Positions 9,390 through 43,812 are shown, numbered from the stretch's first letter. The stretch is 64,000 nucleotides of DNA from Dictyostelium discoideum (GCA_000004695.1 CM000154.2:704001-768000); one strand, 5' to 3'. Translations and numbers: made by a program. The notes: generated by a model not told the origin, from the sequence alone.

Positions 9390-10242
9390 TTATTTTATTT
9401 TATTTATTAAATTTGTGAAAATATCATCACTATCGCCATCATTAATTACTTTAATGATATTTTTATATTTTCGATAAAATTGGTCATCATATAATTGAAT
9501 TGCATCGTTGGGTAAATAAAGCGATGTTAAAGAGGGAGGATGTAATGAAAGATCCAATGAAAAATTTGCAGAGAGTAATATTAGAGTTTCTAAATTTTGA
9601 GGTAATAAATGAGATTCCAATAAAGGAATTTCTTCTAATCCATTTGAAACATAGATTTGTAAAATCTTTAGATTAACTAAATCTGTTAAAAAATCACTTG
9701 CAGAATAATATTGTGGTAACCAGTGAAATGAAAATGATGTTAAATTCTTCAAGTTTGATAATGATCTAATATTCTCTATTTGACTATTATACTGTGACAT
9801 ACTAAAAATAATAGTCTCACAAGATTGTGGTATTGAATCTTGAATAATTGCACGAGTATAACCACAAATTTCTAATGATTTCAAATTCTTTAAATGTGAT
9901 AAACACATAATACCACCAGCACCAGCACCAGCACCAGCACCAGTACCAGTACCAGTACCAGTACCAGCTTCACCATCTTCTGTTGATGATGGAATTAAAT
10001 CACGATCATATAAATTTAAATTTAAATCTGTTATAGAATTTGGTAATAAAGGTAATGTGAAATTTTCCATTCCACCATCCATATTATTTGCTTTGAAATT
10101 TGGAAATGGGTATTTTATATTCAACTTCTTCATTGTTGAATGTAATGTTAATAATGCTTGATCATTTTCAATTAGTTCTCTAGAAATTGATAATGATTCA
10201 ATTGAATTTGGAAATTCTTTAAAATTTTGATTACTATTACTT

Positions 10243-11754: not shown

Positions 11755-17476
<5,722 letters not shown>

Positions 17477-29542: not shown

Positions 29543-32500
29543 ATGAAATTATTTATTTATTCAATTTTATTTCTTTTAATATTTAAAAGTTTTTTTGTAA
29601 ATTCAACAACATTAAAAGAAAATGAAATTGGTTCAATAAAAAAACAAAAGTCTCCATTTGAAGAGAATAATATTTCACAATTAGATTTTACATCAGTTTT
29701 TTCGCCAGGTGTTTATGCTATACCTTGGACTGATCCAAATATGCCAACAGTGGCATTGGAACAAGCCTCACATTCTGGTTATTTCATTGGAAATGTTATT
29801 CTTCAAGGAAGTCAATTCAATGACCCAAAATTGAGTGGTTTATTGAATGGAAAGGATCTTTATGTACTCAGTCATTTTTCAGGTGCAGCTTGTTGTCAAA
29901 ATGTTACAAGTGAAATAAAATTATTATTTACCTTTCCAATAAGCAATATTTGTTTGTTGATCGCATCTGTTGATGAGAGTGATTTTGTTACTGTAAGAGC
30001 CAGAAAAACACAAACCGATAATATTTATGGAATTGGTAGCTCAAATGCTCAAATGGATATGAAAAAAGATTGGGCAAACTATGGACAAGGCACTTTATCA
30101 GTTTCAGGGGTACAACCATCAAATAATTCGGGTATACCTCCAATTGTTCTCACTAGAGATCATTCAAAAGCTTTTATTACAAGTATGGGAAATCCAACCA
30201 CAATTAACTATCAGATCTTGGCTCCATTCATTAATGTATCTTCAATTCATATTTCTTATTCAACTTTATCCGATTCTCAATACGTATTTTATGCACTTTT
30301 CCAATGTCCAAAACCAACCAGTGATATTGAACCAACCTGTGAACCTGGATGCATGACAAGTGGAACTACTTCAACAACAACAACATCAAAAACAACAACA
30401 ACAGCAACAACTAAAACATCAACAACCGGTTCTTTGACTACTGGCCCTTCACAAAGTACTGGTCCTTCAACAACTACAACTACTGGTGGATCACAAAGTA
30501 CTGGTGTTTCAACGACCATAACAAGTGGATCACAAAGTACTGGTGCATCAACAACTGCCACAGCTAGTGGATCACAAAGTACTAGCGCATCAACAACTGC
30601 CACAGCTAGTGGTTCACAAAGTACTGGTGCATCAACTGCCACAACTAGTGGAGGAAGCACTGGATTTATTTCCGGAGCTTCAACAACTTCAATGTCAACA
30701 ACAACAGCAACAGGTAGTATTCCAACAACTGGATCACAAACCTCTACATCAGGATCATACACAACAACTGGATCACAAACCTCTACTTCAGGAACATACA
30801 CAACAACTGGATCACAAACTTCCACTTCAGGAACATACACAACAACCGGATCACAAACTTCCACTTCAGGAACATACACTACAACAACTAAACCATCTAC
30901 AACTACTGGTGGAGGAAGCACTGGATTCCTATCAGGAGCTTCAACAACTTTGGGTGGTGGGTCAGGATCATCGACCTCCTCACAATCTGGTCAAAGTTCA
31001 ACCGGTATTATTTCAGGAGTTATATCAGGAGGTAATAGTGTCGCAGGAGGATCAGGATCAGTCGGAAATAGTGGTTCAATTACTGGTTTAACAACAACTA
31101 CTGGTGGAATAAGTGGAGGTAATTTTATTGCAGGTGTAACAACTTCAAATTCAATCGCTCAAACTGGATCAGTTACAGGTTTAATTGCCAATGGTATTGC
31201 AGGATCAGTCGGAGGTTTAACAACAGCCAATTCATTAACAGGAGTAGGTTCAATTGGTAATATCGCCAATGCAATTTCAACTGGTCTTGTCGGTCAAATC
31301 ACAACATCAAAACCAACAATCTCATCAACAACAACAACAATATCCAGTCAAGCTACAAGTGGCTTTATTTCTGGAGCAGGTAGTATCGCTGGTGGATTAT
31401 CAATTGGTAATAGTGGATCAGTAGCCGGAATAACAACTCAATCAGGAAGCTTAACTGGTGCAAATACAGTAGCAGCAGTAACAACAGCCAACTCAATTGG
31501 ATCCAAAACATCAATAACTGGTGTTTCATCAATTGGAGCAATTTCAGGTTCAATTGATGGATTAACAACTGCAAACTCATTAACTGGTGTGTCATCAATC
31601 GCTGGTATAACTAATCAAGCATCATCAATCGCCAATGCAATTTCAGGTGGTAATATTGCAGGTGTAACTACATCTCAAATTTCAACCGGTATTATTTCAG
31701 GAGTAATTGCAGGAGGATCTGGATCAATCACATCTCCACAATCTATAACTGGCCAAAGTTCAACCAGTATTACTTCAGGAGTAATTTCAGGAGTTATATC
31801 AGGAGGTAATAGTGTCGCAGGAGGATCAGGATCAGTCGGAAATAGTGGCTCAATTACTGGTTTAACAACAAATGGTGGAATAAGCGGAGGTAATGCTATT
31901 GCAGGTGTAACAACTTCAAATTCAATCGCTCAAACTGGATCAGTTACAGGATTAACTGCAAATGGTATTGCAGGATCAGTCGGAGGATTAACAACAGCAA
32001 ACTCATTAACAGGAGTAGGTTCAATTGGTAATATCGCCAATGCAATTTCAACTGGTCTTGTCGGTCAAATCACAACATCAAAACCAACAGTTTCATCAAC
32101 AACAACAACATCAAGTCAAGGTACAAGTGGCTTTATTTCTGGAGCAGGTAGTATCGCTGGTGGATTATCAATTGGTAATAGTGGATCAGTAGCTGGAATA
32201 ACAACTCAATCAGGAAGCTTAACTGGTGCAAATACAGTAGCAGCAGTAACAACAGCCAACTCAATTGGATCCAAAACATCAATAACTGGTGTTTCATCAA
32301 TTGGAGCAATTTCAGGTTCAATTGATGGATTAACAACTGCAAACTCATTAACTGGTATATCATCAATCGCTGGTATAACTAATCAAGCATCATCAATCGC
32401 CAATGCAATTTCAGGTGGTAATATTGCAGGTGTAACTACATCTCAAAGTTCTACTGGTATTATTTCAGGAGTAATCGCAGGAGGATCTGGATCAATTACA

Positions 32501-35332
32501 TCTCCACAATCTATAACTGGCCAAAGTTCAACCAGTATTATTTCAGGAGTAATTTCAGGAGTTATCTCTGGAGGTAATAGTGTCGCAGGAGGATCAGGAT
32601 CAGTCGGAAATAGTGGTTCAATTACTGGTTTAACAACAAATGGTGGAATAAGCGGAGGTAATGCTATTGCAGGTGTAACAACTTCAAATTCAATCGCTCA
32701 AACTGGATCAATTACAGGCTTAATTGCCAATGGTATTGCAGGATCAGTCGGAGGTTTAACAACAGCAAACTCATTAACAGGAGTTGGTTCAATTGGTAAT
32801 ATCGCCAATGCAATTTCAACTGGTCTTGTCGGTCAAATCACAACATCAAAACCAACAATCTCATCAACAACAACAACATCCAGTCAAGCTACAAGTGGCT
32901 TTATTTCTGGAGCAGGTAGTATCGCTGGTGGATTATCAATTGGTAATAGTGGATCAGTAGCTGGAATAACAACTCAATCAGGAAGTTTAACTGGTGCAAA
33001 TACAGTAGCAGCAGTAACAACAGCCAACTCAATTGGATCCAAAACATCAATAACTGGTGTTTCATCAATTGGAGCAATTTCAGGTTCAATTGATGGATTA
33101 ACAACTGCAAACTCATTATCTGGTATATCATCAATCGCTGGTATAACTAATCAAGCATCATCGATCGCTAATGCAATTTCAGGTGGTAATATTGCAGGTG
33201 TAACTACATCTCAAAGTTCTACTGGTATTATTTCAGGAGTAATCGCAGGAGGATCTGGATCAATTACATCTCCGCAATCCATCACTGGTCAAAGTTCAAC
33301 CGGTATTATTTCAGGAGTTATCTCTGGAGGTAATAGTGTCGCAGGAGGATCAGGATCAGTCGGAAATAGTGGTTCAATTACTGGTTTAACAACAAATGGT
33401 GGAATAAGTGGAGGTAATGCTATCGCAGGCGTAACAACTTCAAATTCAATCGCTCAAACTGGATCAGTTACAGGATTAACTGCAAATGGTATTGCAGGAT
33501 CAGTCGGAGGTTTAACAACAGCAAACTCATTAACAGGAGTAGGTTCAATTGGTAATATCGCCAATGCAATTTCAACTGGTCTTGTCGGTCAAATCACAAC
33601 ATCAAAACCAACAGTTTCATCAACAACAACAACATCAAGTCAAGGTACAAGTGGTTTTATCTCTGGAGCAGGTAGTATCGCTGGTGGATTATCAATTGGT
33701 AATAGTGGATCAGTAGCCGGAATAACAACTCAATCAGGAAGTTTAACTGGTGCAAATACAGTAGCAGCAGTAACAACAGCCAACTCAATTGGATCCAAAA
33801 CATCAATAACTGGTGTTTCATCAATTGGAGCAATTTCAGGTTCAATTGATGGATTAACAACTGCAAACTCATTAACTGGTATATCATCAATCGCTGGTAT
33901 AACTAATCAAGCATCATCAATCGCCAATGCAATTTCAGGTGGTAATATTGCAGGTGTAACTACATCTCAAATTTCAACCGGTATTATTTCAGGAGTAATT
34001 GCAGGAGGATCTGGATCAATCACATCTCCACAATCTATAACTGGTCAAAGTTCAACCAGTATTATTTCAGGAGTAATTTCAGGAGTTATATCAGGAGGTA
34101 ATAGTGTCGCAGGAGGATCAGGATCAGTCGGAAATAGTGGTTCAATTACTGGTTTAACAACAAATGGTGGAATAAGCGGAGGTAATGCTATTGCAGGTGT
34201 AACAACTTCAAATTCAATCGCTCAAACTGGATCAGTTACAGGTTTAATTGCCAATGGTATCGCAGGATCAGTCGGAGGATTAACAACTGCAAACTCATTA
34301 ACAGGAGTAGGTTCAATTGGTAATATCGCCAATGCAATTTCAACTGGTCTTGTCGGTCAAATCACAACATCAAAACCAACAGTTTCATCAACTACAACAA
34401 CAACATCAAGTCAAGGTACAAGTGGTTTTATTTCTGGAGCAGGTAGTATCGCTGGTGGATTATCAATTGGTAATAGTGGATCAGTAGCTGGAATAACAAC
34501 TCAATCAGGAAGCTTAACTGGTGCTAATACAGTAGCAGCAGTAACAACAGCCAACTCAATTGGATCCAAAACATCAATAACTGGTGTTTCATCAATTGGA
34601 GCAATTTCAGGTTCAATTGATGGATTAACAACTGCAAACTCATTAACTGGTGTGTCATCAATCGCTGGTATAACTAATCAAGCATCATCAATCGCCAATG
34701 CAATTTCAGGTGGTAATATTGCAGGCATAACTACATCTCAAAGTTCAACTGGTTTGACATCATCAGTATCAATTGCATCCTCTGGCCAAAGTTCAATTGG
34801 TATTACTTCTGGAGTTATCTCAGGAGGCAACAGTGTTACAGGAGGATCAGGATCAGTCGGAAATAGTGGTTCAATTACTGGTTTAACAACAACAACTGGT
34901 GGAATAAGCGGAGGTAATGCTATCGCAGGTGTAACAACTTCAAATTCAATCGTTCAAACTGGATCAGTTACAGGCTTAACTGCCAATGGTATTGCAGGAT
35001 CAGTCGGAGGATTTACAACAGCAAACTCATTAACAGGAGCAGGTTCAATTAGTAATATTGCCAATGCAATTTCAACTGGTCTTGTCGGTCAAATCACAAC
35101 ATCGAAATCAACAACATCAGCTCAAGGTACAGGTGGACTCACTACTGGCAGTGGTTTGATAGGTTCTACAAATCCAACCAAAAAACCATCTTTTAGCTCC
35201 ATTGGCTTCATTTCTGGTAGTTTTAAAATGAATGATGATAAACCATTCATTTTTGAAAATGATAAAGTTGATAAAAAAGATATTGTTAAAGAAGTACCTC
35301 GAAATCAAAGCCCAGCTTTTAGTGAAAATTAA
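29543..35332 (+). CDS. Large secreted or cell-surface Ser/Thr/Gly-rich repeat protein (mucin or adhesin-like), 1929 aa, single exon
   Basis: The ORF starts with a signal peptide MKLFIYSILFLLIFKSFFVNS. A Cys-containing globular N-domain of about 260 aa follows. A Thr/Ser-rich linker follows, (GSQSTGxSTTxT)n then (TGSQTSTSGTYTT)x4. Five near-identical 256-aa units follow, each GSVGNSGSITGLTT..GGISGGNAIAGVTTSNSIAQTGSVTGL.ANGIAGSVGGLTTANSLTGVGSIGNIANAISTGLVGQITTSKPT.SSTTTT. The C-terminal tail is short and basic. There is no internal stop over 5.8 kb in 22%-GC DNA, and codon usage is non-homopolymeric. Confidence 0.8.
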   Translation: MKLFIYSILFLLIFKSFFVNSTTLKENEIGSIKKQKSPFEENNISQLDFTSVFSPGVYAIPWTDPNMPTVALEQASHSGYFIGNVILQGSQFNDPKLSGLLNGKDLYVLSHFSGAACCQNVTSEIKLLFTFPISNICLLIASVDESDFVTVRARKTQTDNIYGIGSSNAQMDMKKDWANYGQGTLSVSGVQPSNNSGIPPIVLTRDHSKAFITSMGNPTTINYQILAPFINVSSIHISYSTLSDSQYVFYALFQCPKPTSDIEPTCEPGCMTSGTTSTTTTSKTTTTATTKTSTTGSLTTGPSQSTGPSTTTTTGGSQSTGVSTTITSGSQSTGASTTATASGSQSTSASTTATASGSQSTGASTATTSGGSTGFISGASTTSMSTTTATGSIPTTGSQTSTSGSYTTTGSQTSTSGTYTTTGSQTSTSGTYTTTGSQTSTSGTYTTTTKPSTTTGGGSTGFLSGASTTLGGGSGSSTSSQSGQSSTGIISGVISGGNSVAGGSGSVGNSGSITGLTTTTGGISGGNFIAGVTTSNSIAQTGSVTGLIANGIAGSVGGLTTANSLTGVGSIGNIANAISTGLVGQITTSKPTISSTTTTISSQATSGFISGAGSIAGGLSIGNSGSVAGITTQSGSLTGANTVAAVTTANSIGSKTSITGVSSIGAISGSIDGLTTANSLTGVSSIAGITNQASSIANAISGGNIAGVTTSQISTGIISGVIAGGSGSITSPQSITGQSSTSITSGVISGVISGGNSVAGGSGSVGNSGSITGLTTNGGISGGNAIAGVTTSNSIAQTGSVTGLTANGIAGSVGGLTTANSLTGVGSIGNIANAISTGLVGQITTSKPTVSSTTTTSSQGTSGFISGAGSIAGGLSIGNSGSVAGITTQSGSLTGANTVAAVTTANSIGSKTSITGVSSIGAISGSIDGLTTANSLTGISSIAGITNQASSIANAISGGNIAGVTTSQSSTGIISGVIAGGSGSITSPQSITGQSSTSIISGVISGVISGGNSVAGGSGSVGNSGSITGLTTNGGISGGNAIAGVTTSNSIAQTGSITGLIANGIAGSVGGLTTANSLTGVGSIGNIANAISTGLVGQITTSKPTISSTTTTSSQATSGFISGAGSIAGGLSIGNSGSVAGITTQSGSLTGANTVAAVTTANSIGSKTSITGVSSIGAISGSIDGLTTANSLSGISSIAGITNQASSIANAISGGNIAGVTTSQSSTGIISGVIAGGSGSITSPQSITGQSSTGIISGVISGGNSVAGGSGSVGNSGSITGLTTNGGISGGNAIAGVTTSNSIAQTGSVTGLTANGIAGSVGGLTTANSLTGVGSIGNIANAISTGLVGQITTSKPTVSSTTTTSSQGTSGFISGAGSIAGGLSIGNSGSVAGITTQSGSLTGANTVAAVTTANSIGSKTSITGVSSIGAISGSIDGLTTANSLTGISSIAGITNQASSIANAISGGNIAGVTTSQISTGIISGVIAGGSGSITSPQSITGQSSTSIISGVISGVISGGNSVAGGSGSVGNSGSITGLTTNGGISGGNAIAGVTTSNSIAQTGSVTGLIANGIAGSVGGLTTANSLTGVGSIGNIANAISTGLVGQITTSKPTVSSTTTTTSSQGTSGFISGAGSIAGGLSIGNSGSVAGITTQSGSLTGANTVAAVTTANSIGSKTSITGVSSIGAISGSIDGLTTANSLTGVSSIAGITNQASSIANAISGGNIAGITTSQSSTGLTSSVSIASSGQSSIGITSGVISGGNSVTGGSGSVGNSGSITGLTTTTGGISGGNAIAGVTTSNSIVQTGSVTGLTANGIAGSVGGFTTANSLTGAGSISNIANAISTGLVGQITTSKSTTSAQGTGGLTTGSGLIGSTNPTKKPSFSSIGFISGSFKMNDDKPFIFENDKVDKKDIVKEVPRNQSPAFSEN
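30990..34880. repeat. Tandem array of five roughly 768-bp (256-codon) repeats inside the coding region of the gene at 29543..35332
   Basis: The periodicity shows in the antisense ORFs at 31365, 32133, 32901 and 33657 (spacing 768, 768, 756) and in the recurring protein blocks. The units differ by only a few substitutions (for example V/I, T/I, Q/A). Confidence 0.9.
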
Positions 35333-35514: not shown

Positions 35515-38500
35515 TTAATTATTCATAGTTTTCATTGAAATATTATTATTTTTTTTAAATTTAGATTTAAAAGATAACATTTTAGTTCTAACACTTATGT
35601 TTTTTGTGTAAAGTACAGACATTAATACAGTTACAACGATAGCAGCACCAACAACTGAAACAACTACGGCAACTGGTAAAATCCATTTTCTTTTATCATT
35701 GAAGTTGTTGGAAGAGTTTTCAATTTTAATACCACATTCATCATATTCATCTTCATTGAAATTTGGATCTACCAAAACTGAGAAATCTGGATCTAATTCT
35801 ATATATTCTTTAAAAAAAGGTATATTAACTTTAACTTGAATTGTTGTACCAAACTCTAAACCTTCATTTGAAGTTGAAACAACTCTACCATCAGCGATTA
35901 GATAATTTGAGAATTTACCATACAATGATACTTGATTATTTGGTAATGTTACCCAATGCATATCTGTTGATTTCTTTGCGCCCCATGCAATTGATTGTTT
36001 AATTTCACATTCTGTTGATAATTTCGAATTTGGTGATGCTTGATAAATCAATTGTAAATTATTTAAATTTGAAACAAATGTATAATTTTCAATTCTTACT
36101 GAATATTTAATTGAGTGATCAGGTAAATTTAATAATTGACCTGCCCACTCTCTTGTTGTTGCAACGGTAATAGTTTCTAGTTCTACCAAAACCTTTGAGT
36201 ATTCAGTTAATGTAGTGTTATAGATAAGAATATTATTTTCATCGGAAAGTAAAGACCATGAATCTGTTGTAAATGTATAATTTTTAACCAATTTACCATT
36301 GAAATCGATTTCTTGAATGTATGGTATTAGAATTGAATAACCAGATGATTTGGTATAGTCATTTAAAGTTGAACTACTATTTGTTGAGAAGGAACCCAAG
36401 TCAATGGATGGCTGGTTTTTACTTGTATTCATTGTCATTGATAAACCAAGATCGGGTGAATATTGATTACAAGATACACCAGTGTAATCCTTATTACAAT
36501 TACAAGTCATATCATTAGAACAAACTCCTTTTCCACTACAATTATTAATACATTTAAATGTCATATCGATTGAACAATCCGAACCTCCCCATCCATTTTC
36601 GCAGGTACAGGTTGATAAAGCTACATTACAAACACCATTACCACTACAATCTGATTTCATACAAGTTTGAATGAAAACACTAATATTTTTAATTCCATTA
36701 AAACCATAATCAACAGAGATGCTAAATGGATTGGTTGCAGGTGCCTTTAATGTATAGAAACCCAATGTACCATTAATCATTGTTAAATTTGAAGTTGAAA
36801 CCAATAATGATTGATAATCTAAAATTTTTGAAGGTAATAAATCGAGGTTTGTACCAGTAACATACAAAACTGTATCATTCATCATCACTGAAATTTGCCA
36901 AATATTTGGATTATAAAAATCTTGATAAAAGAAAAAGATTGGACAATTTTGAATGACCCCACCATTTATAACTCCATTTGAATCTACCATATTCCAAACA
37001 GAACATTGACCAACCATTCTTAAACCCCAATATAATGGAATTTCCATATCACATGTATATAATGATGATAGATTTGAAATTTGTTTTAGTGAACACTGAA
37101 TTTTCTCGTTGGTTTGTTTTTCTGAAATATAGAAAATTGGATCTTGACCATAGGATGGTGTAAAAATTTCATTGTTTGAATATTTCAAATCAATTGATAT
37201 TTTTAATTTACGATTTGAGCTACTAACATCAATAAAATTTCTAGAAAATGTTGGTGTACCAATTAAAACTGGTTTAACAATTGGTGGTGGTATAATATTG
37301 ATATATTGTTGACTAGTTTGGAATGCTGTTGGACTTAATTCATAACAATTATCGAAAATATCACAAAATGATTCTATAAATGCATTTGGATTCAAATAAT
37401 TATATTTTGCATTTAAAGTTAACAATGTACCACTTAAATTAAAATAAGAAGTTGGATCATCTTTTAAATATACCAATGATTGAGTATAACTATTGAAAGT
37501 ATCTTTAATTGTTAAAGTTAAATTCTTAATATCGGGGAATTGAGAAGATTTAATATTGAATTTTGTTGGTTGACTATTATCAAAATCGCCCAATCTCAAA
37601 AATCTTAAAATTAACTCCGGTCCTTGATAATCTTTATTTCTAATTATAAATTGTGAGTCAACGACTGTTGTGGTTGTTTGAAACTTTTGGGTTAATTTAT
37701 TAATAAATTCTAATTCTTTAGTTGAAAGTGTAAAAGTTGATGTTGGATTTGATTTCTTTGAAACATTAATTGAAATAAATTTCTTTTTACTTAAAGTTGT
37801 TGAATCGATTGAAAAATTAAAATTTCCTTTAAATAATGCTGAATTTGTTTCAGGTAGATAGGTCATTGTTAATGGTATACTATTTTCAATTGGTCCTTTA
37901 TTTTCATAATCACCAAATATTTGAACCACAACATTATAATCTTGATCAAAAACATTTCCAAATAATGATGAGAATGTAACGTTTGTTGCTGAATTAAAAG
38001 TTACAAAGTTTGTAAATAAATGAGCAGTTGGAATACTTGTAGTACCAGTACATTGATCAATATTTTCAAAAAATAATTGACGTAGCTCGGTTGCAGAGAA
38101 ATCATTTTCAAATAATCTATTACCTTTAATATCTGAACAATCAATAACTGGTGAAACAATTGAACAAAAGTAACGATTAAATTTTAATTTAATGGAAAAT
38201 TCTAATGATTGTGAGATATAGGTATGATTAATTGATTTCAAATGAATTGAACTTGGTGATAATGTAAATGAATTTGTTGCAAAACTAAATTTACAAGTTG
38301 ATTGACCAACTCCAACTGTATCCCAAATTGAAATTAAAAATTCATCTTCTTGATTCGATTCTAATGCCCAATTAAATTTAACAGTTAAACTTGGATTTAT
38401 TAAATCTTTTTTTATAAATGGATTGCCCGTCAATGTAATGGATGGATTTGTTGTTGGACCAACTAAACTATAGATCATTGATGGTGTATCACTCGCGATT

Positions 38501-40321
38501 GGTATATATGGAGTCCATTGAAGATTATTACCAGAACCTATGAAACCATGTGGGAATGATGATGAAATATTTAAAAATTCTCTTGAGTTTGGTGATGGTT
38601 TTGAATTTGTTGTTAATTTTCCAACTGGTGTTAATGAAATGGTGACTTCTGAAATTTCATAAAAAGTTTGAGTCATTGAAAAACTACCTTTAACAAATGT
38701 AAAGTATTCATTACCTTTTCCAATTTCAATAGAATTTTTTACTGTTGATATTAAATCTGATTGTGGTGAAATGATATCAATTGTAACTGAACTATTTGAA
38801 TATAATAAAACTCTACCAACACTTTCATAATTACCGAAAATAGCAAAGGCAACTGTTGAACTTGTTATTAAATAATCTGGAAGTGATATAATTTTACAAT
38901 AATAATTTTTACTAAAAAGTTCTCTATCACTAAGGAAAATAACATCATTTAATTTATAATCAATACTATTTAAAATTTGAGTGGTATCAGTGAAATTTAA
39001 TTCAACTAAAATTTGGATTTGTTTATTTTCATATCTATATTTACCACCAAAATATTGTGGAATCTTATAGAATTGATTTGATAATAATGTGACTTTCTTT
39101 GTAAAAGTTGGTATTAATGGAGGAGGTTGAGTATAATGTAACTCTGTACTCCATTGCGATCCTATTGGCTTTGGAATATCTATTCTAATCTTTGTATCTG
39201 AAGGTGATAATGTTAATCTAGCAATAGATGTCCAATAATTTGAAGAGTTTGATTTAATTGATATTGGAACAATATTCCATCCATCAAGTTGCATTGATTC
39301 AATCTTTTCATTTGAAACAAATATACCATAACAAAATGACCAACCATTAACTAAAACAAGTTGAGAGCTAATTGATTTTGGTAAATGATTACTTGTAAAA
39401 GTTGTACTAACTTGTCTTTGTTGACCTGTCATTTCATCTATAATGATTTCAGTGGTTTCAGTCAATTGTGAATCATTAAATTTATTATAATAATAATAAT
39501 AATCCAATCCATTTAAACTTTTAATAAATTGTAAATTACTAAATGTTGAATCTGTACTACTGCTACCATCATTATAAATATCTTTAGAATAAAACATTCC
39601 ATATGAACCTGATTCAGCATTATTAACGGTAACAATTGATAAATGTTTATTATAATCCAAACCAAATCCTAAAATATTATTATTTGTTGCATTGGTTAAA
39701 ATAATTGAATTTTCTTTGATTACATTATATGATGGTGCATTGAATGAAAATGGTACTGTTTTAAATTCTGCAATGACTTGATTTCCTCTTTGTGGATCTA
39801 TATACTCTAAATGTAAATAATAATAATCATAAAATGATTTAGTAGTTTCATCCATAAATGATGATAAACTATATGGCATTATAAATGTGTAATTTGCAAT
39901 TTGTTTAGCTTTTAACCATGTTCTTTTATTTCTTGGTTGACTATCTATTGATAATTTTTGTTGTTGTTGTTGAAATTCATTAAAATCTACCAAAGTTGCA
40001 TCAGTTGTGGATGGTCCAATTGTTGGGACATCTTCATCTAAAATTAAATTATAAGTACCATTTGTTATTATTTGATCTAAACTATTATAAATAACTGCAT
40101 AACCACTTAAAATTGTTGGTGAATCAAAAATTGAACTTAATTTAAAATATAAACTTTGGTTGTCTGATCCTGGATAAAATGGTGTGATTGCAAATGGATA
40201 AATGATATTTGGCGTAGTTATAACAGATTCCACTATCATTTTTTTTTTTTTTTTTTTAAAAAAAATATTAATTTTATGTATAAGTTTTTATTATTATTTA
40301 TTTTTTTTTTTTTTTTTTAAT

Positions 40322-40355
<34 letters not shown>

Positions 40356-40435
40356 GAAAACCTACAATTTAACTGACTATATATTTGATTAATAAATAAA
40401 AAAAATAAAAAAAATAAAATATTAAAATATTTCAT
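35515..40435 (-). CDS. Type-I membrane protein with EGF-like Cys-rich modules, about 1595 aa with a proposed signal-peptide exon
   Basis: The main exon is 35515..40232 (ORF 35515..40239). It ends with EGF-like modules CMKSDCSGNGVCNVALSTCTCENGWGGSDCSIDMTFKCINNCSGKGVCSNDMTCNCNKDYTGVSCNQ. A roughly 300-aa juxtamembrane domain follows (REWAGQLLNLPDHSIKYSVRIENYTF...). A TM helix follows (KWILPVAVVVSVVGAAIVVTVLMSVLY). The cytoplasmic tail is short and basic. The protein is N-glycosylation-site-rich. The proposed exon 1 is 40366..40435 (MKYFNILFFLFFLFINQIYSQLN plus t). Its donor GTAGGT is at 40365. The intron is 133 nt. The acceptor AG is at 40234-40233. This splice gives an in-frame signal peptide. 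The exon-1 call is inference only. Confidence 0.6.
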
Positions 40436-40838
40436 TCCTTTATTTATTTAATATTATTTTTTATTAAAAAAAAAAAAAAAAAAAAAATTAAAGTTATTAT
40501 AAATACTATTAGCAAATCAAAAATATCAAAAAAAAAAAAAAAAAAGAAAAAAAAAAAGTTATCAATTTTTTTTTTTTTTTTTGACCAACACAAAAACTTT
40601 GAATTTTTTGATTTAAATTATTATCATTTATTTCTCATTAATTTTGTTATACCGAAATTAATTTGAATTTTTTTAAAAATAAAAATAAAGATATTTTTTT
40701 TTTTAAAAAATCAACTAAAAAAAAAAAATTTAATACCCTCACATTTTTGAAACAGTTATTTCGAAGTTTAAAACTAATTATTTTTATTTTATTTTTATTT
40801 TTATTTTTATTTTTATTTTTATTTTTTAAAAAAATTAT

Positions 40839-42280
40839 TTACATTTTTATACTATTATTTTTATTATTTCTTTTTAATTTATATTTAAAAGATAAGATTT
40901 TAGTTCTAACATTTGTATTTTTAGTATAAAATAAAGACATTAATAATGCGACAATGATAGCAGCACCAACAACTGAAACAACTACAGCAACTGGTATAAC
41001 CCATTTTCTATTATCATTATTTTTTTTAATTAAAATACCACATTCATCATATTGTTCATTATTCATATTTCCAGAATTTACCAAAACTGAAAAATCTGGA
41101 TCTAATTCTATATATTCTTTAAAAAAAGGTATATTAACTTTAACTTGAATTGTTGTACCAAATTCTAAACCTTCATTTGAAGTTGAAACAATTCTACCAT
41201 CAGCGATTAGATAATTTGAGAATTTACCATACAATGATACTTGATTATTTGGTAATGTTACCCAATGCATATCTGTTGATTTCTTTGCGCCCCATGCAAT
41301 TGATTGTTTAATTTCACATTCTGTTGATAATTTCGAATTTGGCGATGCTTGATAAATCAATTGTAAATTATTTAAATTTGAAACAAATGTATAATTTTCA
41401 ATTCTTACTGAATATTTAATTGAGTGATCAGGAAGTGTCATTAATTGACCTGCCCACTCTCTTGTTGTTGAGATTTTTATCAACTCAATTGATACAGTTA
41501 CATTTGAACCTGCTGATAATTGAGTTTGATAAATTGTAATACTGCCACCAGTTGTTGAATTTTTAGTACTTTCAACTAATTGCCAATCATTTGAATTGGA
41601 GAATGTATAATTTTTAACTAATTCACCATTGAAATCGATTTCTTGAATGTATGGTATTAGAATTGAATATTCCGATGACTTTGTATAATCGTTTAATTCC
41701 AATGAAGTGTTTTTTGAATTTGTTGAGAATGAACCCATTGTAATTGAAGGTTGAGTTAAACTTTTATTCATTGTCATTGATAACCCGATATCTGGTGAAT
41801 ATTGATTACAAGATACACCAGTGTAATCTTTATTACAATTACAAGTCATATCAATTGAACAAACTCCATTACCACTACAATTATTAACACATTGATATGT
41901 TAAATCTATTGAACAGTCTGAACCACCCCAACCTTGTTCACATTTACATTCAATTGTTTCAGGTAAACAAATTCCATTACCACTACAATTTGGTTTCATA
42001 CATGTTAAAATGAAAACATTTATAGTCTGATTAAAATATCCAACCAATTCAATGGAAAATGGTTGAGTAACATTGGATTTTAATAAAAAATATCCAAAAG
42101 TATTAATATCAGTATTATTTAAATCAACATATCCATCATTTGTATTAACTAATAATTCATTGGTAGTATCACTAAATTTAGTTAAATTTAAATTATAACC
42201 TTTTAAATATAATTTATTATCATTCATTTTAACTGATGCTTCATTAACATTTGGGATTCTAACTTTTTTTGTTGTAAAAA

Positions 42281-42312
<32 letters not shown>

Positions 42313-42432
42313 TTTTAATATTAAAGACAACAAAAAAACTATAATTATTAATTATTGACTTATTTATTTACCTGATCCATTTGTTAAGAAAAACAAAGAA
42401 AATAAAAATAAAAAAATAAAATACCTCTTCAT
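40839..42432 (-). CDS. Paralogous type-I membrane protein with EGF-like modules, about 494 aa, 2 exons
   Basis: Exon 1 is 42372..42432 (signal peptide MKRYFIFLFLFSLFFLTNGS plus g). The donor GTAAAT is at 42371. The intron is 109 nt. The acceptor AG is at 42264-42263. Exon 2 is 40839..42262. It has the same architecture as the upstream gene: EGF-like CMKPNCSGNGICLPETIECKCEQGWGGSDCSIDLTYQCVNNCSGNGVCSIDMTCNCNKDYTGVSCNQ, a juxtamembrane domain with REWAGQLMTLPDHSIKYSVRIENYTF..., and a TM helix KWVIPVAVVVSVVGAAIIVALLMSLFY. About 130 residues are identical to the 35515 gene. Confidence 0.7.
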
Positions 42433-42960: not shown

Positions 42961-43812
42961 TTATGATTGTAATTGTGATTGTAATTGTGATTGTAATTGT
43001 GATTGTGATTGCGATTGTAATTGTGATTGTAATTGAGATTGTAATTTTTTTGATTTTTTTAAACTAATTATTTTATTAGCATTTATGATTAAACATTGTA
43101 AATTAAAATCAAAAGGTATCGATGGTACAGAGATATTATTTTCTAAACGATTAATTAAATCATTTGAGCCATTTTCACCAATTAATTCTATTAAATAATT
43201 TTTAAAAGTGGCTTTATCAATTAAACCATTACCAAATGCAATTGATAATAACATTAACACACCAAAACCTTCATTGTCTTTTTCAACTTTAAATTGTTTT
43301 GAAAATGTTATTTCTGGTGTATTACCTGAATTTCCTAAATTTATACTATCTTGACTATCATCATTTGTACTACCTGATATACTATCTTCCCAATATTCTT
43401 CCTCTATATTATTACTAGAATTAAAAATATTTCTTTTTTCACAAACTTGTTCACAATTTATGGAATCATTAACATCATTATTATCATCATTATCAATATT
43501 ATTATTATTATTATTACTATCATCATCATTTTTAATATTTTTATTATTATTATTAATAACATCTTTTGCTGGCTTAAAACTATTTTGAAAGAAACTTTTA
43601 TTTGCAAGAAAATTGGGAAATGGTGCTTTAGTTGTGAAATTTCTGGTATTTTTATTTGAAAAATTTAATCCAAATACATCTTTATTATTACTATAATTAT
43701 TCTTATTATTGTCATCATCTACATTTATGGCTCTTCCATAACTATTTTTTATTTTATTGCGACTATTAATATTGAAGGTAAAACTTTTCTTACCACCAAA
43801 TATTGTATGCAT
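42961..43812 (-). CDS. Hypothetical low-complexity (N/D-rich) protein, 283 aa, ending in a (QSQL)n repeat
   Basis: The ORF has ATG at 43812. The middle part has ordinary composition (FGVLMLLSIAFGNGLIDKATFKNYLIELIGENGSNDLINRLE). The 3' end is encoded by a 12-bp minisatellite (TGATTGTAATTG)n at 42961-43040. I recognise no homology. It may have further 5' exons (for example the ORF at 44354..44563). Confidence 0.4.
   Translation of the reverse strand: MHTIFGGKKSFTFNINSRNKIKNSYGRAINVDDDNNKNNYSNNKDVFGLNFSNKNTRNFTTKAPFPNFLANKSFFQNSFKPAKDVINNNNKNIKNDDDSNNNNNNIDNDDNNDVNDSINCEQVCEKRNIFNSSNNIEEEYWEDSISGSTNDDSQDSINLGNSGNTPEITFSKQFKVEKDNEGFGVLMLLSIAFGNGLIDKATFKNYLIELIGENGSNDLINRLENNISVPSIPFDFNLQCLIINANKIISLKKSKKLQSQLQSQLQSQSQSQLQSQLQSQLQS

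Follow-up and report, generated by a model that had tools for sequence, protein, structure and literature searches.

Introduction

Interlocus gene conversion, with the concerted evolution of the copies involved, has its textbook cases in the primate gamma-globin genes and in the opsin genes. Among genes whose products resemble those discussed here, comC of Dictyostelium discoideum is listed as developmentally essential, its product combining EGF domains with a signal peptide and a transmembrane (TM) segment (PMC4931340), while GLMP, an accessory subunit of the transporter MFSD1, carries a supersandwich domain followed by a TM segment and a short tail (PMC6819133, PMC11252000). In addition, the IPT/TIG adhesion and allorecognition genes tgrB1 and tgrC1 are adjacent social-amoeba genes that encode type-I surface proteins. 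The locus described here lies in a stretch of 64,000 nucleotides from D. discoideum AX4 (GCA_000004695.1 CM000154.2:704001-768000; "the window"; approximately 22% G+C), and comprises two neighboring genes on the minus strand, DDB_G0287805 (the large gene) and DDB_G0287807 (the small gene), both annotated as uncharacterized, hypothetical "EGF-like domain-containing" proteins. The two genes are old tandem duplicates, and a 341-bp segment within them has very probably been the object of recurrent interlocus gene conversion.

With classical interlocus conversion, this locus shares the direct tandem arrangement of old duplicates, a sharply bounded tract that clusters by species, homogenization of synonymous sites, and the location of the tract in the most constrained coding segment; nothing essential differs, and the additions are a new Dictyostelium locus and recurrence in three lineages. 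The likeness to the ComC-domain family, which takes its name from comC, consists of EGF-like repeats that precede the ComC supersandwich domain (ComC_SSD), then one TM helix and a short tail, although the supersandwich domains score 61-67 bits here and approximately 245-250 in ComC-like proteins, and the LRR_ComC and Beta-sand_ComC domains of the latter are absent. The resemblance to GLMP, a protein without EGF repeats, is one of fold only, at 8-9% identity, with no match to the Pfam GLMP family and on the basis of a medium-confidence model. Like tgrB1 and tgrC1, the two genes are adjacent and encode predicted type-I surface proteins, but they have no IPT/TIG domains, their paralogous copies are homogenized, and no locus-specific excess of divergence between strains was seen. 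The locus adds one more case to an established process, in a domain family already described, and opens no new question in biology; its interest lies in a well-bounded, recurrent interlocus gene conversion in a protist, where strong constraint on the protein and conversion fall on the same half of one domain. For a large, uncharacterized family of dictyostelid surface proteins, this would point to the C-terminal half of the supersandwich domain as the functionally critical part. A full-text literature search on both gene identifiers revealed no paper that names either gene, and no experimental or expression data on the two, while searches for gene conversion in Dictyostelium produced nothing specific, and those for comC together with lagC produced no papers.

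A near-identical tract within diverged tandem paralogues

The tract occupies positions 35783-36123 (minus strand) in the large gene, where it covers the supersandwich domain's C-terminal half (PDHSIKY...IELDPD), and 41092-41432 (minus strand) in the small gene, corresponding to residues 298-410 of its 494-residue product. In a codon-guided alignment, these 341-bp copies lie at a constant offset of 5309 bp and differ at 3 positions (99.1% identity), with perfect runs of 150, 89 and 71 bp. A preliminary description of this DNA had reported a near-identical stretch of roughly 350 bp; the stretch is real, but the intervals given for it were unequal in length and displaced by approximately 10-30 bp. 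Its estimate of about 85% identity for most of the shared region fits that region as a whole (84% over 1140 aligned nucleotides), but outside the tract identity is only 77.5% (267 codons, 22.5% divergent).

The plot of identity along the two genes, suggested in the same description, is patchy rather than uniform. When the positions of the mismatches were permuted, none of 20,000 permutations generated a 341-nt window with three or fewer mismatches, the largest permuted window being 129 nt. Furthermore, synonymous differences between the AX4 paralogues are found in 2 of 109 codons within the tract versus 37 of 177 outside it (Fisher p = 7e-7). The tract is bordered by divergent, indel-rich segments, and blastn and tblastn searches of the window identified no copies of the tract or of the surrounding module besides those of the two genes; tRNA genes were also looked for in the window, and none were found.

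Age of the duplication and the switch in tree topology

The pair was compared in four genomes (eight sequences): AX4, GCA_054859385.1 (cf. discoideum, L002), Dictyostelium firmibasis (L001) and Dictyostelium purpureum (L003). In D. firmibasis, cf. discoideum and D. purpureum, the small gene followed by the large gene is located downstream of the same 315-aa gene and of the Cpn10 gene, and the size difference between the two members is the same in all species compared. A neighbor-joining tree of the 5' flank of the tract recovers the large-gene orthologues (AX4, cf. discoideum, D. firmibasis) as one group and the small-gene orthologues as another, both with 100% bootstrap. The corresponding tree of the tract places the D. 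firmibasis paralogues together (100%), the four discoideum copies together (99%), and the AX4 pair together within the latter (80%). Trees from 120-nt sliding windows locate the main flip in topology at alignment columns 687-987. The same reversal is evident in pairwise identities: the large genes of AX4 and D. firmibasis are 85% identical in the 5' flank and 91.5% identical in the tract, while the paralogues rise from 75% to 99.1% in AX4, from 74% to 98.2% in cf. discoideum, and from 73% to 96.8% in D. firmibasis, identity of the tract between species being approximately 91% in all pairings. The duplication thus predates the split between D. discoideum and D. firmibasis, and probably that from D. 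purpureum as well.

Synonymous and nonsynonymous divergence (dS and dN, by the Nei-Gojobori method) follow the same boundaries. Between paralogues, dS in the tract is 0.029 in AX4, 0.058 in cf. discoideum and 0.128 in D. firmibasis, as compared to 0.65-0.73 in the 5' flank of the three; between AX4 and D. firmibasis orthologues, it amounts to 0.47-0.51 in the tract and 0.54-0.66 in the flank. The dN/dS ratio is at its lowest in the tract (approximately 0.03, versus 0.12-0.25 in the 5' flank), and some 20 fixed species differences in the tract are common to both paralogues. Since synonymous sites of the tract are free to vary between species and are homogenized within a genome, constraint at the nucleotide level is excluded, and gene conversion is left as the explanation. 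In addition, at columns 143 and 200, substitutions that postdate the separation of AX4 and cf. discoideum, and are found in just one of these lineages, occur in its small and its large copy alike, and the IADGR[VI]V site reads V/I in AX4, I/I in strain ACTFIR and V/V in strain ACTFIW (protein models, three strains only), suggesting that conversion continued until very recently. The preliminary description had proposed recent gene conversion between tandem paralogues, and both parts of that proposal are borne out, the former by the switch from orthologue to species clustering at the tract and by the homogenization of synonymous sites within species, and the latter by the observation that dS between the AX4 copies of the tract (0.029) is lower than that between AX4 and the diverged strain (0.04-0.11).

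Two further patches were detected in the sliding-window trees: one over the TM helix and tail, where species clustering is driven by D. firmibasis, and a weak one in the second EGF repeat. The first of these regions is 97-98% identical between the D. firmibasis paralogues (L001, positions ~9480-9600 in the small gene and ~14820-14940 in the large gene) and 82-86% identical between those of AX4, which do not share the D. firmibasis patch. In the second EGF repeat, positions 36463-36560 and 41802-41900 are 90-93% identical between the discoideum paralogues, and the motif NKDYTG is present in both discoideum copies, while NKGYTG is found in both copies of D. firmibasis. This patch, for which window bootstrap support reaches only 64%, may be an older and smaller conversion tract.

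Gene conversion and its alternatives

The observations described above are most readily explained by a partial tandem duplication, long ago, of 1.4 kb at the 3' end of the large gene, which would have generated the small gene, and by subsequent repeated exchange of sequence, through non-allelic (interlocus) gene conversion, between the two copies, which are 5.3 kb apart in direct orientation. Such exchange would affect the 341-bp segment that encodes the C-terminal half of the supersandwich domain, and would have occurred independently in the AX4 lineage, in the diverged discoideum lineage and in D. firmibasis. Constraint on the protein may keep the two copies of the tract similar enough for repeated homologous recombination, while the divergent, indel-rich neighboring segments probably stop the extension of heteroduplex, generating the sharp borders. 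One observation weighs against this scheme, or restricts it. In D. purpureum, where dS is saturated (0.9), the paralogues cluster together over the whole module, with many lineage-specific residues in common both within and 3' of the tract; given this saturation and this grouping, sequence trees do not separate conversion of the whole module from an independent duplication, and the evidence against the latter is limited to conserved gene order and architecture.

The grouping of the D. purpureum copies is also what would be expected if young duplications had arisen independently in each lineage, the flanks having diverged through rapid evolution and not through age. This possibility is highly improbable in view of the 5' flank, where each set of orthologues, large and small, is held together at 100% bootstrap across AX4, cf. 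discoideum and D. firmibasis, and where dS between paralogues equals or exceeds that between orthologues; synteny, gene order and the difference in size do not vary among the species compared, and flank trees never grouped the D. discoideum or D. firmibasis paralogues by species. A different proposal attributes the identity of the tract to extreme purifying selection, or to a function at the nucleotide level such as an RNA element or codon constraint, with no exchange between copies. It is true that no part of the protein is better conserved than the tract, in the eight sequences compared and in distant family members alike, and that its dN/dS is very low, but dS of the tract between orthologues is close to that of the flank, within-species paralogue dS is only 0.03-0.13, about 20 synonymous differences between species recur in both paralogues, and the GC content of the tract is the same as that of the coding sequence, leaving this proposal with very little probability. 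Assembly of AT-rich Dictyostelium DNA is difficult where repeats are nearly identical, which brings up the question of whether reads of one copy could have been used to polish, or been collapsed onto, the other; nevertheless, three further independent assemblies display the same tract-restricted homogenization with their own lineage-specific states, the AX4 copies differ at three positions, and protein models from strain ACTFIT are identical to the AX4 open reading frames (ORFs), so that an artefact of this kind is extremely improbable.

The role of selection in the process is a separate matter. Homogenization could itself be selected if the short and long proteins required an identical membrane-proximal surface, either to recognize the same partner or to pair in cis. 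In support of this idea, homogenization of the tract is seen in three lineages or more, over the very half of the supersandwich domain that is best conserved, and the closest solved fold, that of GLMP, belongs to a supersandwich-TM-short-tail protein that is an obligate partner of a multipass transporter (PMC6819133, PMC11252000). However, the same pattern is predicted by strong constraint combined with neutral conversion, and identity to GLMP is 8-9%, with no Pfam match to its family; selected identity is unlikely. By extension of the analogy with GLMP and MFSD1, selection might keep the tract identical with DDB_G0287807 acting as a truncated partner or decoy of DDB_G0287805, both requiring the same surface to engage a shared multipass partner or each other, a suggestion that we consider improbable. 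If true, it would describe a co-evolving receptor and accessory pair that is kept in register by gene conversion.

Gene models and annotation of the pair

Gene conversion is discussed above in terms of two same-strand genes with products of 1595 and 494 residues, sizes that had been proposed previously and are supported by the ORFs and by splices that are in frame and in phase 1 in both genes. The ORF of the large gene (35515-40239, minus strand; 1574 aa from the ATG at 40239) is identical to XP_637069.1/Q54JT3. The AX4 annotation begins at this internal ATG (MIVESV), and thus has no signal peptide. Addition of an upstream exon at 40366-40435 (minus strand, 70 nt, donor GTAGGT), which is absent from the AX4 annotation and encodes the putative signal peptide MKYFNILFFLFFLFINQIYSQLN, extends the product to 1595 aa: intron 1 would cover 40233-40365 (133 nt, A/T homopolymer-rich, as suggested by frame and conservation), with its acceptor TAG|TG at 40233/40232 in frame, and exon 2 would run over 35515-40232 through the stop codon. 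The D. firmibasis orthologue model (P0002), also of 1595 aa, starts with MKYFIILFILFFNQINCQLNL|VKVV and uses the same junction (QLNL|). A short hydrophobic signal-peptide ORF followed by a GT donor is kept upstream of the large gene in all four genomes, within DNA that is otherwise A/T-homopolymer intergenic; the donor reads GTAAGT in D. firmibasis and D. purpureum, and is kept in cf. discoideum as well.

The ORF of the small gene (40839-42227, minus strand) encodes 462 aa, and reaches 494 aa with an exon at 42372-42432 (minus strand), encoding the signal peptide MKRYFIFLFLFSLFFLTNGS, and an acceptor at 42262. Intron 1 (42263-42371, 109 nt, GTAAAT...AAG) has its acceptor AAG|TT at 42263/42262, which keeps the frame, and exon 2 (40839-42262) continues through the stop codon at 40839-40841. 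The junction is the same in AX4, ACTFIW and D. firmibasis models, the end point is the same in models of other strains and species (P0004, P0011), and the spliced 494-aa product is identical at 493 of 494 residues to the annotated DDB_G0287807 protein (Q54JT2, 540 aa). The two signal-peptide exons, both of which had been predicted from the window, are thereby supported by conservation and by independent gene models: the first by the D. firmibasis model and its presence in four genomes, and the second by the same first exon in the AX4 annotation. Neither spliced product, of 1595 or 494 aa, has an exact match in the protein collection searched, the AX4 model of the large gene deviating at its 5' end and that of the small gene at its 3' end.

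The annotated 540-aa form of DDB_G0287807 uses a GTAAAT donor that overlaps the stop codon at 40839-40841, which is skipped, and acquires 47 low-complexity residues (FKLRNNCFKNV...) from A/T-rich intergenic DNA (40507-40596 and 40740-40772, minus strand), while small-gene models of other strains and of D. firmibasis stop at ...SIKM or ...SMK. This 3' extension is probably an annotation artefact. In three recent assemblies, the small and large genes are given as one fused protein of 2075-2084 aa (L002 10001-16975; P0001, P0006, P0009), in which the stop-overlapping donor of the small gene is joined to the last 11 nt of large-gene exon 1 (...SIK|IQLNL|ESV...). Such a fusion is topologically implausible, since the large ectodomain would follow a TM helix and a cytoplasmic tail. 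The reference genome would therefore benefit from corrections to the 5' exon of DDB_G0287805 and to the doubtful 3' extension of DDB_G0287807, and the newer assemblies from corrections to the fused models; in the case of DDB_G0287805, addition of the signal-peptide exon would change the predicted topology from that of a protein with a cytosolic start to that of a secreted type-I protein.

Protein architecture and domain family

The module shared by the two proteins starts with approximately 75 residues, which lead into two EGF-like repeats; a ComC-type supersandwich domain (PF22933), a TM helix and a basic tail follow. The order proposed earlier, of EGF-like repeats, juxtamembrane domain, TM helix and short basic tail, is confirmed by Pfam and inspection. 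Homology between the two starts approximately 75 aa before the EGF repeats, at ~36880 in the large gene and at the ATG at 42227 in the small gene, which would make the latter a 5'-truncated copy with a signal-peptide exon of its own. The six-Cys EGF-like repeats, which match EGF_Teneurin in two stretches per protein, are encoded on the minus strand at 36463-36663 in the large gene (12 Cys; 33.7 bits versus a cut-off of 24.3) and at 41802-42002 in the small gene (41.2 bits), whose 12 Cys lie at residues 108-172. ComC_SSD is above the Pfam gathering score (24) in both proteins, at 35773-36363 (minus strand, 61.4 bits) and at 41082-41687 (minus strand, 66.6 bits). The TM helices are at 35608-35682 and 40926-41000 (minus strand), and are followed by cytoplasmic tails (35518-35607 and 40842-40925) of 29-31 aa with 8-9 Lys or Arg and no Asp or Glu. 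Each protein has a hydrophobic N-terminus, encoded by its first exon, and a single C-terminal hydrophobic helix, which in the small protein corresponds to the single hydropathy peak at residues 439-450 and to an AlphaFold2 helix at 442-468; both are hence predicted to be type-I membrane proteins, with a cleavable signal peptide, a single TM pass near the C-terminus and a basic cytoplasmic tail.

A sequence search of the PDB matched the EGF repeats to those of teneurin and Notch, and in that search only the EGF repeats were matched, the supersandwich domain having no solved relative by sequence. The AlphaFold2 model of the small protein, generated from a 33-sequence alignment, is of medium confidence (mean predicted local distance difference test score, pLDDT, of 69.7), with values of 80-92 over most of the ComC_SSD; in this model, the juxtamembrane domain finds its best structural matches among supersandwich (galactose-mutarotase-like) folds. 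The tract holds motifs that are kept across the wider ComC_SSD family (SIK..., NY.., LN.LQL and DPDFSVLV). Searches that started from the C-terminal module and went on to a profile showed that more than 30 dictyostelid and Physarum proteins carry the EGF/ComC_SSD/TM module, some of them with IPT/TIG domains.

DUF7034 (PF23033; 36961-37251, minus strand; 37.8 bits versus a cut-off of 27) was detected by Pfam in the large protein only. At E ≤ 1e-3, a search of 1.84 billion representative proteins gave only four relatives of the N-terminal ectodomain of that protein (1187 aa as searched), two of them distant proteins and the other two the orthologues from D. firmibasis and D. purpureum. This ectodomain (36670-40230, minus strand; ~1170 aa) is lineage-restricted, with DUF7034 as its sole Pfam domain.

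A resemblance to developmental adhesion or recognition families had been suggested, along with searches for IPT/TIG and PA14 domains. Those searches returned no match to IPT/TIG (PF01833) or PA14 (PF07691), the domains of the tgr-like and Psi-like adhesion families, in either protein (Pfam, E ≤ 0.1), and under the same conditions LRR_ComC (PF24141) and Beta-sand_ComC_1st/2nd (PF24142/PF24143) were likewise absent from both, while the LRR_ComC and ComC beta-sandwich domains are present in the ComC-like protein P0020. The type-I EGF architecture is therefore upheld, and the ComC domain provides a link to comC at the domain level, but the adhesion framing is not supported, no LRR, beta-sandwich, IPT/TIG or PA14 domain having been detected. 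By architecture and by the presence of ComC_SSD, the two proteins look like developmental or signalling-type cell-surface proteins.

Divergence between strains

The preliminary description also hinted at special allelic diversity at this locus. GCA_054859385.1 is 91-95% identical to the window over 27 kb, flanking genes included, and locus-specific hyperpolymorphism was rejected, the flanks being as diverged as the genes between AX4 and this assembly. For the large gene, dS is 0.073 with dN/dS of 0.21 against GCA_054859385.1, and 0.62 with dN/dS of 0.24 against D. firmibasis; fast evolution is confined to the distal 300 aa of its N-terminal ectodomain (dN/dS 0.4-0.9). The hint is thus not sustained, the strain difference of approximately 5% spanning the entire 27 kb and the large gene having a dN/dS of only about 0.21; no locus-specific excess of diversity was seen among two or three strains, which are too few to settle the matter.

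The assembly GCA_054859385.1 is labelled Dictyostelium discoideum (tags ACTFIR), and its L002 1-26975 aligns with 28624-52511 of the window at 90-95% identity to AX4. This divergence is well above the within-species expectation, and the assembly may represent a cryptic lineage, like the "cf. discoideum" assemblies of the same series.

Neighboring genes

On the plus strand, positions 29543-35332 encode a protein of 1929 aa, rich in Ser, Thr and Gly, whose N-terminus is hydrophobic and for which Pfam gives no match. The gene is convergent with the large gene, with 183 bp between the two stop codons, and includes 5-6 tandem units of approximately 768 bp that are 97-98% identical, as well as microrepeats of 39-42 bp near 30449-30885. 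Orthologue models reach 2697 aa in D. firmibasis and, in the other discoideum assembly, exceed 4278 aa, the end of the locus cutting this last model; the number of 768-bp units therefore varies. A 283-aa Asn-rich ORF upstream of the small gene (42961-43812, minus strand) has a C-terminal (QLQS)n repeat and no Pfam match, and its counterparts in the other genomes are models of 264-326 aa.

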